This document shows, piece by piece, positions 1-7,041 of a stretch of DNA of 7,041 nucleotides (position 1 is the first letter of the stretch; each line of letters starts with the position of its first letter). The notes below the pieces were generated by a model. That model saw only the letters and a program-made list of their open reading frames with translations. It had not been told where the DNA came from and made no database searches. This DNA comes from a virus (Duplodnaviria; Heunggongvirae; Uroviricota; Caudoviricetes). The position numbers and the translations under genes were made by a program. Where the stretch lies: IMG/VR virus record IMGVR_UViG_2778261502_000011; one strand, given 5' to 3'.

Positions 1-981
1 TTATAACGTCACTCCGCCTTTTAGTGGATTCAGAGCGACGGCATTTTGCAGATAGTCAGGCGCAAGGTGCGCATAGGCCATCGTCTGCTGAATGCTCGCA
101 TGTCCCAGAATCTGTTGCAGTGCGATTATATTGCCCCCATTCATCATGAAATGGCTTGCGAATGTATGCCGCAGGATGTGGGTTGCCTGATTGGGTGGTA
201 TATCAGGTTTCACTCTGCGTAAAATCCCGCAAAATTTCTCATAATCAACTTTGAATAATTTGGCGCTGGCCTCCTCTTTAACTTTTTTCTCCAGTTCCTC
301 AGAAATCGGCACGGTTCGCTTTTTACCGTTTTTGGTTTTCAGGAAGGTAACCCTGCAATTTGTAATCTGTGCTGGTTTTAGCGTGGCAACTTCCGTCCAT
401 CTTCCTCCAGTGCTCAGACATAAAAGCGCGACAAGTAAGTCATCACCAGCCAAAACATTTAACAGTTTTTCGATTTCTGCTTTTTCCAGGAACGTCATTT
501 CAGGGTTGGCCTCCGCCAGTGGCGGCAGTCCGTGAATTGGGTGTTGCCCGGAAAATTCATCCAATTGAATTAATTTTGTGAACATGCCGGATAATCGGTA
601 CATGTCACGGTTTATCGTTGCGGCACTGATACCATCACGTAGTCGCATGGAACGATAATCCATCAAAGCCCTTTTGCTCATCCTGCTCACTGGTATATCA
701 CCTATGCCGCTGATGGTTTTGAGTAGATGATTAAACTCTTTTGTTCCATGCTCGTGGTTTTGCCCGTGATATTTCCACCAGATGTCCAGCAACTCACTCA
801 AAGTCCGGCGGTCTGCTCGCTGGCCTCCCCATTCTTTCTGACTGGCATTGGCGATTGTGTATCGCTCAAATGCTAGTGCTTCAGCTTTTCTTTCGAATTT
901 CCTGCGGATGCGTTTTCCGTCGCGACCGCGAGGTCTAATGTCCACTTCATAGCGACCATCATCGAGCTTCTTAATTGCCAT
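1..981 (-). CDS. int: Tyrosine recombinase, P2-type phage integrase
   Basis: Minus-strand ORF with TAA stop at the reverse complement of 1-3. The ATG at the reverse complement of 979-981 is preceded by GGAGGG 7 nt upstream. The product starts MAIKKLDDGRYEVDIRP and carries the tyrosine-recombinase C-terminal signature (HILRHTFASH ... GH ... MAYAHL with the nucleophilic Tyr). An in-frame upstream ATG at 1011 (336 aa) has no Shine-Dalgarno sequence and is the less likely start. Confidence 0.93.
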   Translation of the reverse strand: MAIKKLDDGRYEVDIRPRGRDGKRIRRKFERKAEALAFERYTIANASQKEWGGQRADRRTLSELLDIWWKYHGQNHEHGTKEFNHLLKTISGIGDIPVSRMSKRALMDYRSMRLRDGISAATINRDMYRLSGMFTKLIQLDEFSGQHPIHGLPPLAEANPEMTFLEKAEIEKLLNVLAGDDLLVALLCLSTGGRWTEVATLKPAQITNCRVTFLKTKNGKKRTVPISEELEKKVKEEASAKLFKVDYEKFCGILRRVKPDIPPNQATHILRHTFASHFMMNGGNIIALQQILGHASIQQTMAYAHLAPDYLQNAVALNPLKGGVTL

Positions 982-1050
982 AAGAAAGCCCTCCGGCGCT
1001 GTATTCACCATCTTGGTAGCAAATGGTGAAAATGTAATCTTTATATAGAG

Positions 1051-1344
1051 TTAGCCAATCCTTTTCGCGGAGTGGTTGGACTCTGTTGACTCTGGCCCAA
1101 TGTGCGCGAGAGCCGGTGCGATTTGTCCTGCGTCCGGCGCGGTTTTATCTGTCATAAGCCATAGAGCATATTTTTGGAATGTGGGATGCATAGTGATTTT
1201 TAGCAAAGCTGTGCCACCGGGTTCAAAGTTTCCTCCTTCATATTTTTTAAGTGTGCTTAGCGGTAACTCTATGATTTCACAGAATTTTGATTGGCTTAGC
1301 CCTTCAGCCTCACGCAAGGCCTTAATCTTTTCGCTTAATTTCAT
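1051..1344 (-). CDS. C: P2 C-type immunity repressor (small HTH DNA-binding protein)
   Basis: 97-aa minus-strand ORF directly upstream of int and co-oriented with it. It faces the early operon across a short intergenic switch region. The protein (MKLSEKIKALREAEGLSQSKFCEIIELPLSTLKKYEGG ... GQIAPALAHIG) resembles the P2 C repressor as recalled, including the GQIAPALAH segment. Confidence 0.8.
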   Translation of the reverse strand: MKLSEKIKALREAEGLSQSKFCEIIELPLSTLKKYEGGNFEPGGTALLKITMHPTFQKYALWLMTDKTAPDAGQIAPALAHIGPESTESNHSAKRIG

Positions 1345-3237: not shown

Positions 3238-3509
3238 GTATTCGTATCGAAATTGGCGAACGTTATGTCGTTACCAGTGACAGCTTTCAGTTTATTCTCC
3301 ACGAGAAAAAGAGAGCGGAAAGCGGTAAAAACGCCGGTCAGGAATGGCTGGCGGTGGTTGGTTATTACCCGAAATTAAGCCAGCTCGTTTCCGGCCTGAT
3401 GCATCACGATATTCTGACCGGAAGCGCAAAGTCTTTTGCTGATTTAAACGCGCAGGTTGAGCAACTCAGCAAGCGTTGTTCAGAGGCTTTTGGCTCATAT
3501 GGCCGTTAA
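3234..3509 (+). CDS. Hypothetical small protein (P2 orf83 position)
   Basis: 91-aa ORF; ATG at 3234 overlaps the preceding stop, with GGAGAA upstream. It overlaps the start of the gene A remnant by 11 nt. Confidence 0.6.
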   Translation: MSIRIEIGERYVVTSDSFQFILHEKKRAESGKNAGQEWLAVVGYYPKLSQLVSGLMHHDILTGSAKSFADLNAQVEQLSKRCSEAFGSYGR

Positions 3510-3787
3510 AGCCTCCGGGCGTTTTGTCCCTCCGTCAGCATTTGCCGCAGGCACCGGTAAGGCGTTTACCGGTGCTTATGCATGGAACGCGCCACGCGAG
3601 GCTGTCGGGCGCGAAAGACCCCTTACACGTGACGAGATGCGTCAGGTGCAAGGTGTTTTATCCACGATTAACCGCCTGCCTTACTTTTTGCGCTCGCTGT
3701 TTACTTCACGCTATGACTACATCCGGCGCAATAAAAGCCCGGTATCCGGTTGCTGATGAGTGGTCGGTTTTTTCAATTAAACAATAA
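3499..3787 (+). pseudogene. A: Remnant of replication initiator gene A: N-terminal ~85 codons fused out of frame to the last ~12 codons
   Basis: From the ATG at 3499 the product reads MAVKASGRFVPPSAFAAGTGK...YDYIRRNKSPV, matching my recollection of the P2 gpA N-terminus, and stops at 3754-3756 after 85 codons. In the +2 frame the next codons read YPVADEW...* (stop at 3785-3787), resembling the gpA C-terminus. The junction lies at the short direct repeat CCGGT / CCGGT (3740-3744 and 3746-3750). A roughly 760-aa protein has been reduced to under 100 aa. Confidence 0.7.
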
Positions 3788-3934: not shown

Positions 3935-3988
3935 CTTCTATATACGGAGGCTTTCGCTATAATACGCGGTCGGTTTTAGGAGGGGATA
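3935..3988 (+). promoter_or_regulatory. Putative promoter and RBS of the methyltransferase gene
   Basis: Consensus -10 TATAAT at 3958-3963 with only a weak -35 (CTTCTA at 3935-3940, 17-nt spacer). Shine-Dalgarno AGGAGG at 3978-3983 lies 5 nt before the ATG at 3989. Confidence 0.45.
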
Positions 3989-4933
3989 ATGCCAACAGTA
4001 GTTTCACTTTTTTCTGGATGCGGTGGTTCCGATGCGGGGGTTCTGAGAGCTGGCTTTGATGTGCTTATGGCCAACGATATCTTGCCGTATGCGCGCGATG
4101 TTTATATTGCCAATCATCCAGAAACTGATTACATTTTAGGCAATATTGCTGATGTAACTACTTTTCCTAAATCTGATTTGCTAGTAGGTTGTTATCCATG
4201 TCAGGGATTCAGCCAGGGTGGTGCGCGTAAGGCCGATCGAAAAATTAATACTCTTTATTTAGAGTTTGCTAGAGCTTTAAACAATATAAAGCCTAAAGCT
4301 TTTATAGTAGAAAACGTGTCTGGTATGGTTAGAAAAAACTTCGAGCATTTGTTATCTGACCAGATCAGGGTTTTTACTGAAGCAGGTTATGCTGTTTCAG
4401 CAAAAGTTTTGAATGCGGCTGAATATGGAGTAGCGCAGGAAAGAAAAAGAATATTTATCGTAGGAATCCGTAATGATTTCAAAGTTAAGTACGAGTTCCC
4501 TCAGCCAACTCATGGGCCGGCGACTGGCGTCAACTATGTTACTATTAAAGATGCTATAGGGCATTTACCTGAATGGCCAGAAGGTGAATTTTATGATATG
4601 GGGTTCCATTGGTATTATATGTCTCGCAATCGTCGCCAAGATTGGGATCAAATTTCAAAGACAATAGTTGCTAATGCAAGGCATATGCCGTTGCATCCTA
4701 TCAGTCCTTCGATGGAGAAAGTAAGAACTGATGAATGGAGGTTTGTTGAGGATCGGAGAGCTCGCAGATTCAGTTTTCGAGAGGCAGCACTATTACAAGG
4801 GTTTGAGGATCTAGTGTTTCCCGAAACAAATGCTGCAAGTCTTGGCATGAAATACACGGTGGTTGGTAATGCAGTGCCTCCGCCGCTTTTTGAAGCTGTA
4901 ACGAAGGCATTGCCAATAGAATTATGGGATTGA
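3989..4933 (+). CDS. DNA (cytosine-5)-methyltransferase
   Basis: 314-aa ORF with a strong RBS. It carries the canonical C5-MTase motifs in the correct order: FSGCGG (motif I, AdoMet binding), PCQGFS (motif IV, catalytic Cys), ENV (motif VI), QERKR (motif VIII) and GNAV (motif X), with a short variable region between VIII and IX for target recognition. Confidence 0.92.
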   Translation: MPTVVSLFSGCGGSDAGVLRAGFDVLMANDILPYARDVYIANHPETDYILGNIADVTTFPKSDLLVGCYPCQGFSQGGARKADRKINTLYLEFARALNNIKPKAFIVENVSGMVRKNFEHLLSDQIRVFTEAGYAVSAKVLNAAEYGVAQERKRIFIVGIRNDFKVKYEFPQPTHGPATGVNYVTIKDAIGHLPEWPEGEFYDMGFHWYYMSRNRRQDWDQISKTIVANARHMPLHPISPSMEKVRTDEWRFVEDRRARRFSFREAALLQGFEDLVFPETNAASLGMKYTVVGNAVPPPLFEAVTKALPIELWD

Positions 4934-4940
4934 TAATCTA

Positions 4941-5930
4941 TTAAGGCTCTGGATTTAATGTATAAAGTTCTTCTTCAAATTCGCGAAACCAATCAGAGGT
5001 AGTTATCGCTTCCCATTGGTTTGCCTTATCAAGTAGATATATGATCCTCAACCTATCTAATAATAATACACCAGCGGTTGCATGTGTGCTTACCCATTCG
5101 CCATTTGCTTCCCGATAGAAAACAGGCGTGAACATTGTTGATGGATGCTGGAAAGCAATTTGGAAATAGGTGGTCAGTTTTAACACGTTAGCCTCTAATG
5201 TTTTGCTTGGCCACCCTGTTTCTTGTGCACCACATTGACCAAGAATTCCATAGTTGCTAGTTTGACCATCAGGAAATTCCACTGTAGCAATTAGGTCAAA
5301 CCCAGCATCACCAGATGTGGGAGCTTTATTTATTTCCCTTGTGTTTAAACTACAAACTCCAAGATCTTTTCCTAAAATTTGTAGAGCATTCCGAAGATTC
5401 GTTCCATAATATTTTTGCCTATCATCGGAGTTAGCATCAAAAATTCTTACGGTGCCATGTGCAGGTAAGAGAGAAATCATTGCAACTTTACATACTCTGG
5501 CAAAGCTCTTTGCCCAACGTTGTGCTGCTCCTCTAATCGACTTAAAGGATCTAAGTCTAGAGCAGCAAAGGAGAAAAACATATATTCTTTGTTGTTGGTT
5601 TAGATTTTCTTTAATAATTATCTCATCACCTGAAATTATAAATGGATATATCTTTCCAAGAGCGCTTTCTCTATATTCGAGTTGTGTCCAAACATCTTCT
5701 AGTTGCTCTTCAAAACGATCATTTCTCTCTGCGTCTCCATCAATTTCTTCTTCAAAATTACATTCTTCATCAATTTCTTCAACACTTGTCATGCCGAATT
5801 TTCTTACTGAATCTAAATCATTTTTATGCAGAGAGTTACGTCCGGTATAATTAATCACCGTGAGTAACTCGGCTAAATCTGCAAACAAATGGGGAGAGTT
5901 GGGATGCATAACTCCTACTTCAAAAGTCAT
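4941..5930 (-). CDS. Uncharacterised protein, downstream partner of the ParB-family gene (function unknown)
   Basis: Long minus-strand ORF (track: 4941..5936, 331 aa) with three consecutive in-frame starts (GTG 5936, ATG 5933, ATG 5930). The ATG at 5930 has GAGGT about 4 nt upstream. The start overlaps the stop of the upstream gene (5920-5922), so the two are translationally coupled. The protein has an acidic segment (EEIDEECNFEEEIDGDAERNDRFEEQLED). I find no Walker A motif and no catalytic motif I can name. Confidence 0.75.
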   Translation of the reverse strand: MTFEVGVMHPNSPHLFADLAELLTVINYTGRNSLHKNDLDSVRKFGMTSVEEIDEECNFEEEIDGDAERNDRFEEQLEDVWTQLEYRESALGKIYPFIISGDEIIIKENLNQQQRIYVFLLCCSRLRSFKSIRGAAQRWAKSFARVCKVAMISLLPAHGTVRIFDANSDDRQKYYGTNLRNALQILGKDLGVCSLNTREINKAPTSGDAGFDLIATVEFPDGQTSNYGILGQCGAQETGWPSKTLEANVLKLTTYFQIAFQHPSTMFTPVFYREANGEWVSTHATAGVLLLDRLRIIYLLDKANQWEAITTSDWFREFEEELYTLNPEP

Positions 5931-7041
5931 CATCACCTCTGCTATTTTTCTCTGCTATTTCAGAACCTATAAGCTTAATATGTTTATTGATTCTTCGTGC
6001 TACTTCATGAGCCTGTCTATCATACTCTACTGTGGCAACCATGCCTGCTGCATCTATCAAAGCCGCTTCAACTTGATAAAGTAACTGGAGAAAGTCCTTA
6101 GTAATATCAGATGTCAATTGGTAGGCCACTGCGAGTGGAGCCCCCATTCGGAATTGCTCCAATGCCTTAGGGCTACTGACAACAGCAGCTAATTCTCTTA
6201 AATTACGTGACTCTCCAACACGAGTTTTTTTATCCTCACCTTTTTTATATAACCACTCAGTTAGCTCTTTTATTTCTTTGTTCTTTAAGCTATTAGAGTT
6301 GATAATAGGATGACTTGGTATTGTGTCTCCATCGTCTTCGATTGAAACTCCGACAAATTGGCCTAACCGCTCATCAGCAAGTGCTGTTGATAATACTGAA
6401 AATTTAATCGTTTCTTCATCTAGTTTTTCAATACCATAAAAATCATTTTCTTTAATGATTTCATACACCGCTAAAGCGTCTAGGTTACGCTTGATATGAT
6501 CCCTACGACTGCCAATAGCTCTGGCAACCTCATAGTAGCGTAGCATCGGATCCTGATTTGCATTGGTATAATCAAAAAGCTGTTTAATATATCGAGCTTT
6601 TGATAAGGGCTCCCATTGTTTGACACCAGTAATATGTCTGAAACCAAGATACGGAAGAATCTCTTCTCTTGTTTGGCGCTCAATGACAGGAACACGATCG
6701 ACTGTATGTTTTGCATTTGATGCAATTTCTCGTAGTCGAGCACTTGGATTTTCACATAGTGTCGGATCGCGTAATAATTTAACTGCGGATAGGCGACGGT
6801 TTCCTTCAACTACAATGTACTTCCCCGGCGCGACACTGTCAGGAATGACAATCAATGGTTCTCCAGGGAAAAAACCATTTTCCGCAATAGCACTCATTAG
6901 ATCTTCGATAGATGTTGAGGTTGCTATGTAGTTAATCATTCCCAATTGGTCACGAGACACGCCTTCAGGAAGTCTTGGGTTTTCTGTGTCAAGTTCCAAA
7001 TCATCTAGCGGAACATAAAGTATTTCTGAATCAGCAATCAT
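5920..7041 (-). CDS. ParB/Spo0J-family protein (ParB N-terminal domain plus HTH) with an uncharacterised C-terminal extension of about 180 aa
   Basis: 373-aa minus-strand ORF whose ATG is the reverse complement of 7039-7041, at the window edge. The N-terminal ~90 residues fit the ParB N-terminal domain pattern: ENPR (res 20-23), SIEDLMSAIAENGFFPGEPLIVIP (box I-like) and YIVVEGNRRLSAVKLL (GxRR arginine patch, nt 6784-6807). A box III-like VIERQTREEIL and an HTH-like YYEVARAIGSRRDHIKRNLDAL (res ~168-192) follow, resembling the Spo0J recognition helix region. No HNH or other nuclease motif was recognised in the C-terminal part. Confidence 0.8.
   Translation of the reverse strand: MIADSEILYVPLDDLELDTENPRLPEGVSRDQLGMINYIATSTSIEDLMSAIAENGFFPGEPLIVIPDSVAPGKYIVVEGNRRLSAVKLLRDPTLCENPSARLREIASNAKHTVDRVPVIERQTREEILPYLGFRHITGVKQWEPLSKARYIKQLFDYTNANQDPMLRYYEVARAIGSRRDHIKRNLDALAVYEIIKENDFYGIEKLDEETIKFSVLSTALADERLGQFVGVSIEDDGDTIPSHPIINSNSLKNKEIKELTEWLYKKGEDKKTRVGESRNLRELAAVVSSPKALEQFRMGAPLAVAYQLTSDITKDFLQLLYQVEAALIDAAGMVATVEYDRQAHEVARRINKHIKLIGSEIAEKNSRGDDDF

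Follow-up and report, generated by a model that had tools for sequence, protein, structure and literature searches.

PD-lambda-5 is a validated two-gene defence system of Escherichia coli prophages, described as "ParB/HEPN, methyltransferase" (Vassallo et al. 2022, PMC9519451). Its authors viewed it as a compacted prophage restriction-modification plus abortive-infection (RM+Abi) system, cloned it in a host deleted for the mrr-containing region, and found its protection to be strongest against T-even phages (PMC9519451). The cassette analysed here is a relative of PD-lambda-5 and not a member of it. It is carried by a 7,041-nt stretch of viral DNA (Caudoviricetes; IMG/VR record IMGVR_UViG_2778261502_000011), which at its full length we call the window, and it encodes a C5-cytosine DNA methyltransferase (MTase), a ParB-fold protein and a 331-aa protein that is predicted to be a nuclease. 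We consider it probable that the MTase is the self-marking modification subunit of an autonomous, mobile, three-gene defence cassette of restriction-modification (R-M)-like type, lodged in the hotspot between genes A and Q of P2-like prophages.

In phage P2 the gene A/Q gap holds old and tin, and the gap is the site of many anti-phage systems (PMC9519451, PMC9122126). For this hotspot, Table S5A of Rousset et al. 2022 lists the arrangement "DNA_methylase + hypothetical + ParBc", and P2 system #2 of that work, with 1136/18,150 loci, carries the note "RM-like system" (PMC9122126). Protein1 of the system #2 representative is 58% identical to the 331-aa protein; the representative ParB and MTase are only 34% and 27% identical, respectively, to the window proteins, and system #2 seems to pool several MTase-containing variants. 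The main text of the same paper was found to make no mention of "RM-like", ParB or methyltransferase (PMC9122126), and the literature searches turned up nothing specific on a system of ParB, nuclease and C5-MTase or on the GGCC methylome of P2 lysogens. The cassette type appears to be already catalogued and mechanistically unexplored. We also asked whether the "plasmid partitioning system" that Rousset et al. place in a quarter of P2 hotspots is this cassette; the identification was rejected, since that system is a StbA/Plasmid_stab_B module.

The cassette is laid out in the window as follows.

3989-4933, plus strand: C5-cytosine DNA methyltransferase, 314 aa (from the open reading frame (ORF), PF00145, motifs and the alignment to M.HaeIII)
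4934-4940: spacer of 7 nt between the convergent stop codons
4941-5936, minus strand: 331-aa protein (329 aa in RefSeq), predicted effector
5920-7041, minus strand: ParB/Srx-fold protein, 373 aa

Linkage of the three genes was assessed from both sides. Loci anchored on the 331-aa gene were drawn from one-genome-per-species contigs, IMG/VR viral contigs and metagenomes and came to 83 distinct loci, 10/83 of them cut by a contig end. A HaeIII-like MTase gene adjoins the 331-aa gene in 68 of the 73 informative loci. It is convergent with a gap of at most 100 nt in 57/83, convergent with an inserted gene in 5/83, upstream and co-directional (MTase, ParB, 331-aa) in 5/83, and downstream and co-directional, 42% identical and of the same type, in 1/83; the remaining 5/83 have no adjacent MTase. 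The ParB-type gene lies directly 5' of the 331-aa gene, mostly overlapping it, at every locus with room for it. The reciprocal set comprised 80 viral loci (IMG/VR) anchored on MTases 69-99% identical to that of the window, three of which end at a contig edge. Both partner types are present in all 77 informative loci, and this MTase clade was never found there without the two of them. Relatives of the MTase (DNA similarity, at least 60% identity) occur in 226 of 5,426 complete E. coli genomes, and the hotspots inspected, one per identity class (n = 3), all contain the trio.

The linkage spans Gamma- and Betaproteobacteria and Acidobacteriota, and four gene orders. The co-directional order MTase, ParB, 331-aa is seen in loci L025, L026, L089, L096, L099 and L179, the whole cassette is inverted between Q and A in L028, and a gene or insertion sequence (IS) is inserted within it in L009, L068, L071, L078, L083 and L092. 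In Acidobacteriota chromosomes the trio adjoins GGT/MoxR genes, in Undibacterium its neighbourhood is plainly chromosomal, and it is also found in an Acinetobacter prophage of non-P2 type and in genomic islands with HipA, integrase or a Mu-like transposase. A P2-like phage of Pseudomonas has the cassette at a different position. Because the linkage is kept across rearrangement, phages, islands and chromosomes, the cassette behaves as one functional unit, and it moves as a unit between these settings. The partners themselves form two or more diverged subfamilies, the window type and the type of phage Wphi gp96/gp98 (25% and 34% identical), and each of the two is accompanied by MTases that share 69-99% identity with the window enzyme. 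Measured over 69 loci, identity to the window proteins has a median of 73% in the MTase, 58% in the ParB-type protein and 51% in the 331-aa protein, an order that holds in 65 of the 69. The MTase is cognate, not orphan. The preliminary description of the window had offered both possibilities. The first, that the enzyme is cognate to the minus-strand genes and these form an unconventional restriction-like effector, is strongly supported by the reciprocal linkage and the predicted nuclease fold described below. The second, an orphan prophage methylase with an anti-restriction role, is contradicted by the presence of both partners in 77/77 viral loci and by the trio in non-phage chromosomal settings.

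The MTase matches the Pfam family DNA_methylase (PF00145) over its full length (E 5e-65; positions 2-322 of the 324 in the profile), scoring 220 bits against a cutoff of 22, and it matches TIGR00675 (dcm) with an E value of 2.6e-56. All six diagnostic motifs of C5-MTases are present in canonical order, in agreement with the earlier statement that the catalytic motifs are intact.

4010-4027, plus strand: motif I, FSGCGG (FxGxG), aa 8-13, S-adenosylmethionine binding
4196-4204, plus strand: motif IV, PCQ, with the catalytic Cys71
4310-4318, plus strand: motif VI, ENV
4436-4450, plus strand: motif VIII, QERKR (QxRxR)
4778-4804, plus strand: motif IX, REAALLQGF
4865-4879, plus strand: motif X, GNAVP

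Alignment to M.HaeIII (PDB 1dct; E 2.8e-48) places residues 4-308 on 3-320, target-recognition domain included. The term "compact" that had been applied to the enzyme is accurate yet describes an ordinary size, M.HaeIII being 330 aa long. A 2025 mutational study assigns the direct base contacts of M.HaeIII to five residues (PMC11879396). Three of these, S224, R225 and R243, are kept in the window MTase as S212, R213 and R231; at the positions of S219 and Q244 it has His. A short GGCC-like site is a reasonable prediction for the target. GGCC counts in the window and the prophage lie near expectation (17 observed against 15-19 expected in the window) and are uninformative on specificity. Upstream of the gene we read from the sequence a perfect TATAAT as putative -10 element (3958-3963, plus strand) and a strong Shine-Dalgarno AGGAGG (3978-3983, plus strand), 5 nt 5' of the ATG; a consensus promoter scan upstream of the MTase called no promoter, the -35 element being weak. 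The stretch 3958-3983 is the putative site of the MTase's own expression signals.

Two observations concern the annotation of this gene. In Yersinia phage HQ103 (NC_070908.1; L002 2335-3279) an intact MTase ORF, 99% identical to that of the window, is unannotated in RefSeq. Among PADLOC families the MTase scores best with DruM of Druantia type II (E 1e-113). The window and the intact locus of E. coli ATCC 8739 contain no further Druantia gene, so that automated defence finders may be misled here into a partial call.

The 373-aa protein is predicted to consist of an N-terminal domain that binds nucleoside triphosphate (NTP), a ParB/KorB-like helical DNA-binding region and a C-terminal helical domain. 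Its fold matches KorB, Spo0J and ParB, and its homologues are named "ParB/RepB/Spo0J partition protein" in RefSeq and elsewhere. Two motifs stand out.

6784-6807, minus strand: ParB box II (P-motif), E79-G-N-R-R-L-S-A86 (GxxRxxA)
6967-6984, minus strand: ParB box I-like motif, E20-N-P-R-L-P25

Across 30 ParB-type homologues, E79, G80, N81, R82 and R83 of the former and N21, P22, R23, L24 and P25 of the latter are invariant. The arginine motif GxxRxxA is required for NTP binding by ParB-fold proteins (PMC12704722), and the protein combines the ParB/Srx N-terminal fold with an intact copy of it, as in ParB proteins that hydrolyse cytidine triphosphate (CTP).

For the 331-aa protein no match was found in Pfam, NCBIfam or PADLOC, and its PHROGs matches are to families of unknown function only. 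The family is large, with 1,188 clusters at 50% identity in an exhaustive profile search, and has no Pfam model; no fusion to ParB or to an MTase was seen among the best 150 cluster representatives, which are mostly about 310-350 aa long. Structure prediction suggests an N-terminal winged helix, a helical linker and a C-terminal PD-(D/E)xK nuclease domain of MspJI/Mrr type, the fold match to MspJI/Mrr being weak to moderate. PDB searches with profiles of close homologues (A1, A2) gave nothing useful. The broad profile A3, built on distant family members, matches MspJI from sequence alone (E 0.013), with GDgGlD...GQCac of the profile on SGDGGVD...GQAKC of MspJI, a stretch which we take to be the site of the D...QxK catalytic motif; Pfam Mrr_cat is touched by a single distant family member (E 0.005). 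The residues that line up here form a predicted catalytic core.

5193-5312, minus strand: predicted catalytic core, aa 209-248, G209-D210-x-G212-x-D214...Q234-C-G236...W242...K245...E248

These residues are invariant or almost so in 33 close and 39 distant homologues, and D210, D214, Q234, W242, K245, D294, R295 and R297 are kept down to about 25% identity. D214 and Q234 align to the MspJI motif, but at the QxK position the canonical Lys has given way to Gly/Ala; K245, which is invariant, is a candidate for its role. The earlier remark that no recognisable restriction endonuclease adjoins the MTase therefore holds at the level of Pfam and fails by fold and family profile, which make the 331-aa protein a predicted nuclease. 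We also considered that it could be a Type IV nuclease dependent on 5-methylcytosine (m5C) and rejected this as the main reading, because it is co-inherited with an m5C MTase and is without an SRA-like reader.

At the junction of the two transcription units the TGA stop codon of the MTase ends at 4933 and the stop codon of the minus-strand 331-aa ORF is 4941-4943, which leaves the 7 nt previously noted, 4934-4940. No terminator was found in this junction; transcripts from both sides must therefore overlap. On the minus strand the two genes make up an operon, in which the ParB-type ORF overlaps the start of the 331-aa ORF by 17 nt and the partners are translationally coupled.

Set beside PD-lambda-5, the ParB-type protein is homologous in its N-terminal half to the PADLOC family PD-Lambda-5_A (E 1.6e-28), a match limited to residues 9-192 on profile positions 7-196 of 440, the C-terminal half being unrelated. 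Both systems have a DNA MTase as obligate partner and are carried on prophages. In PD-lambda-5, however, the effector is a fused HEPN domain, whereas here it would be the separate 331-aa winged-helix/PD-(D/E)xK protein, which has no PADLOC match; its MTase, component B, is Dam-like and annotated as an adenine methylase, whereas here it is a C5 enzyme of HaeIII type; and it has two genes where this cassette has three. Component A is a ParB-HEPN protein of about 430-500 aa, and the window protein, with 373 aa and an N-terminal match only, is not such a protein. Nor is the window MTase a component B: PD-Lambda-5_B is not among its 25 best PADLOC families, the top ones being the C5 families DruM and MTase_II. 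In bona fide PD-lambda-5, of which Marinobacter phage AS1 carries a copy, component A matches over its full length and component B with E values of 1e-103 to 1e-118. In the P2-related Vibrio phage ValB1MD-2 (L186 3132-5571), component A of PD-lambda-5 is split into a ParB half of 252 aa and an effector half of 265 aa, followed by an MTase that is annotated as DNA adenine methylase and matches PD-Lambda-5_B; this split shows that sensor and effector modules are separable.

The likeness to a Type II R-M system such as HaeIII (GGCC) lies in the M.HaeIII homologue, in the tight convergent order found in many R-M pairs, in the PD-(D/E)xK-like protein that adjoins the MTase, and in the mobile, self-contained nature of the unit. 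Unlike such a system, the cassette has an extra, always-present ParB-fold NTP-binding subunit translationally coupled to the predicted nuclease, whose catalytic domain would be of MspJI/Mrr type with its Lys displaced, a controller protein is lacking, and intact pairs occasionally occur without the MTase. Restriction proteins that combine a ParB/Srx-fold NTPase with a nuclease are known from the DUF262 class (GmrSD/BrxU, SspE), which are single-chain DUF262-DUF1524 (HNH-type) proteins. GmrSD, BrxU and SspE attack modified or foreign DNA and, to our knowledge, have no cognate MTase of HaeIII-like kind. With this class and with DndB-like NTP binding (PMC12704722) the cassette shares a ParB/Srx-type nucleotide-binding domain and a nuclease, here a predicted one, in a system that would read the modification state of DNA. 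Neither partner has a Pfam match to DUF262 or DUF1524, and the motif is EGNRR here as against DGQQR there. The MspJI/Mrr Type IV enzymes give the best structural and profile match of the 331-aa catalytic domain, around GDxGxD...GQ, but the 331-aa protein has no SRA-like m5C-reading domain, has a winged-helix N-terminus and lacks the QxK Lys, and its co-occurrence with an m5C MTase argues against m5C-dependent cutting. Judged by these comparisons, the cassette does not belong to PD-lambda-5, is probably not a plain Type II system either, and would resemble both in its working.

Several loci depart from the standard form. In E. coli GF54 (L029 3833-5728) IS1 splits the ParB gene and leaves the 331-aa gene and the MTase intact. 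Yersinia phage L-413C (L185 207-1199) retains about 200 recognisable first residues of the ParB-type protein; nothing else of the cassette is left, and orf91 is the gene annotated next. In E. coli WCHEC020031 (L027) the Wphi-type trio is intact within a heavily degraded P2-like prophage whose gene A and portal gene are partial, which suggests that the cassette was retained after the death of the phage. L071 carries at 4770-5189, between the 331-aa gene and the MTase, a gene for a very-short-patch repair endonuclease of Vsr type (FVDGCFWHGC, recognised by eye). A Vsr gene is a usual companion of active m5C methylases, and its position beside the MTase fits real m5C methylation. The environmental loci L009 (7003-7935), L068 (2459-3391) and L078 (6000-6962) have a gene of 310-320 aa in the same place; the three inserts share an N-terminal "YWWVNHKQTH...GGYIWSP" that resembles a modified-base reader of PUA/EVE type, and the one in L009, the only copy scanned against Pfam, has an HNH_2 nuclease domain. 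Possibly this insert is a Type IV enzyme nested inside an m5C-methylating cassette. Finally, in L007 (19-4332) and L069 (Methylococcaceae) the ParB/331-aa pair occurs without a C5 MTase. Ahead of it and in the same orientation, with 507 bp in between, stand type I hsdM, a gene for an AAA ATPase and hsdS, and the stretch examined shows no hsdR. The pair may have exchanged its partner for a type I methylase, or the genes may only be neighbours in an island.

The mechanism that we propose is as follows. Expressed from its own promoter, the MTase would mark the DNA of host and prophage by methylation at a short site resembling GGCC. The ParB-fold protein, co-translated with the 331-aa protein, would bind a nucleotide (CTP, or adenosine or guanosine triphosphate, ATP or GTP) and form with that partner a restriction-like effector against incoming DNA that lacks the mark. 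Through the head-on, terminator-less junction, transcription of the MTase could dampen or delay expression of the effector upon entry into a new cell, and the contrast of fast-diverging partners with a slowly evolving MTase would fit an arms race centred on the effector. We counted in favour of this self-marking cassette its location in the P2 defence hotspot together with the listing as "RM-like" by Rousset et al., the N-terminal homology of the ParB-type protein to the validated PD-Lambda-5_A, and the pattern of decay, in which either the effector side is hit (L029) or most of the cassette is deleted (L-413C). More specifically, the ParB-type subunit could be a nucleotide-gated, possibly CTP-gated, clamp that loads at unmethylated sites or via the MTase, slides, and delivers or licenses the MspJI-type nuclease; we put this forward as a tentative idea that we would not ourselves expect to hold.

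Other considerations weigh against the self-marking cassette. We infer methylation, cleavage and protection alike; GGCC specificity is read from three conserved contact residues out of five, and a nuclease without the canonical D...QxK Lys is not assured of catalysis. Intact-looking pairs lack an adjacent HaeIII-like MTase in L007, L012, L017, L019 and L074, as does the pair kept on a Bacteroidota plasmid. A constitutive restriction nuclease should not tolerate absence of the MTase unless a protecting one is encoded elsewhere in the genome, so either protection comes in trans from such a methylase or the pair stays latent until something sets it off. Should the methylases of L007, L069 and L085, the last of which is only 42% identical, be functional partners, the pair would read no fixed site, which fits a guard or abortive-infection role better. 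Decay of classical R-M usually leaves orphan MTases behind, and none were seen. These points lead to an RM+Abi alternative, in which the MTase belongs to the cassette and the ParB/nuclease pair, instead of restricting at a specific site, would lie dormant as a suicide or broad-spectrum effector until an infection sets it off, the signal being for instance replicating DNA without methylation or a factor by which the phage counters restriction or the methylase. The hypermodified DNA of T-even phages escapes classical restriction. It is against these phages that PD-lambda-5 works best (PMC9519451), and the ParB half of the cassette is homologous to PD-Lambda-5_A, whose fused effector is HEPN. That intact pairs exist without an adjacent HaeIII-like MTase indicates that the pair is not obligatorily lethal; one lineage directly follows type I hsdM-AAA-hsdS, like PrrC-type guards, and this type of pair accompanies MTases of different kinds. 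However, the effector fold predicted here is of DNA-nuclease type and not HEPN, and the near-absolute tie to one conserved MTase clade is what would be expected of self-protection against a DNA-targeting activity. We regard this alternative as unlikely.

Two further readings detach the MTase from defence by the cassette. Its own expression signals and opposite orientation, and the frequent presence of more than one system in a hotspot, would suit an orphan prophage methylase that shields phage DNA or acts epigenetically beside an unrelated two-gene defence system, and solitary MTases are common in phages. But the trio stays together in 77/77 MTase-anchored and 68/73 informative pair-anchored loci. 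It does so in four gene orders, in Gamma- and Betaproteobacteria as well as Acidobacteriota, and in non-phage settings too, and the MTase stays with both the window and the Wphi partner subfamilies, which are only 25-34% identical; we therefore consider an orphan very improbable. The names given in RefSeq and the fold matches to KorB, Spo0J and ParB would instead suggest maintenance or partition, with the ParB-type protein and its partner segregating or stabilising the (pro)phage genome and the MTase marking DNA for them. Against this, neither the window nor any annotated related locus contains a ParA gene, so that a ParABS set is lacking; P2-like prophages integrate by their own integrase (window 1-1011); the partner is nuclease-like, and the module sits in a defence hotspot; the closest functional relative of the ParB-type protein is a validated defence protein; and the partitioning system of P2 hotspots reported by Rousset et al. 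is the different StbA/Plasmid_stab_B module. A partition role is the least probable of the readings considered.

Except for a 1988-bp deletion in gene A, the window matches at 100% identity the early region of a P2-like prophage that E. coli ATCC 8739 (NZ_CP043852.1) carries next to cpxP. In the intact prophage the three-gene cassette occupies the whole gap from gene A to the portal gene Q. The remaining genes of the window, from Pfam, PHROGs and annotation, are these.

1-1011, minus strand: integrase
1051-1344, minus strand: C-type repressor
1466-1753: cox
1923-2423: gene B homologue
between the gene B homologue and the gene A remnant: DUF2732, DUF5405, TraR/DksA and DUF5405 genes
3457-3756, plus strand: remnant of P2 replication gene A, left border of the hotspot (matches phrog_91 and phrog_12979)

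Full-length gene A is found in NZ_CP043852.1. The deletion, which corresponds to L001 6046-8033, has its junction at window 3742-3744 with 3 bp of microhomology (GTA); it shifts the reading frame and destroys the gene. The junction was found in none of 5,426 complete E. coli genomes, and the deletion reflects either a rare defective prophage or an artefact of the construction of the window.

Among the cargoes of the P2 hotspot in E. coli, MTase-containing cassettes grouped as "RM-like" rank second in frequency (1136/18,150, PMC9122126). Strains that carry the cassette are predicted to m5C-methylate their DNA at a GGCC-like site, and this marking would affect cloning into McrBC-positive hosts, phage host range and the design of phage therapy. 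If the clamp model were true, it would add a restriction class with a ParB-type NTP switch beside the ATP-driven Type I/III and the GTP-driven McrBC enzymes, with a sensor reusable with other effectors (HEPN, as in PD-lambda-5) and with other methylases (C5, Dam-like, perhaps type I). If the proposed mechanism is correct, it would tie the ParB/CTPase fold to restriction of unmethylated DNA, would explain many prophage proteins now named "ParB partition protein" or "hypothetical", and would give a modular picture of sensor, effector and methylase that covers PD-lambda-5 too.

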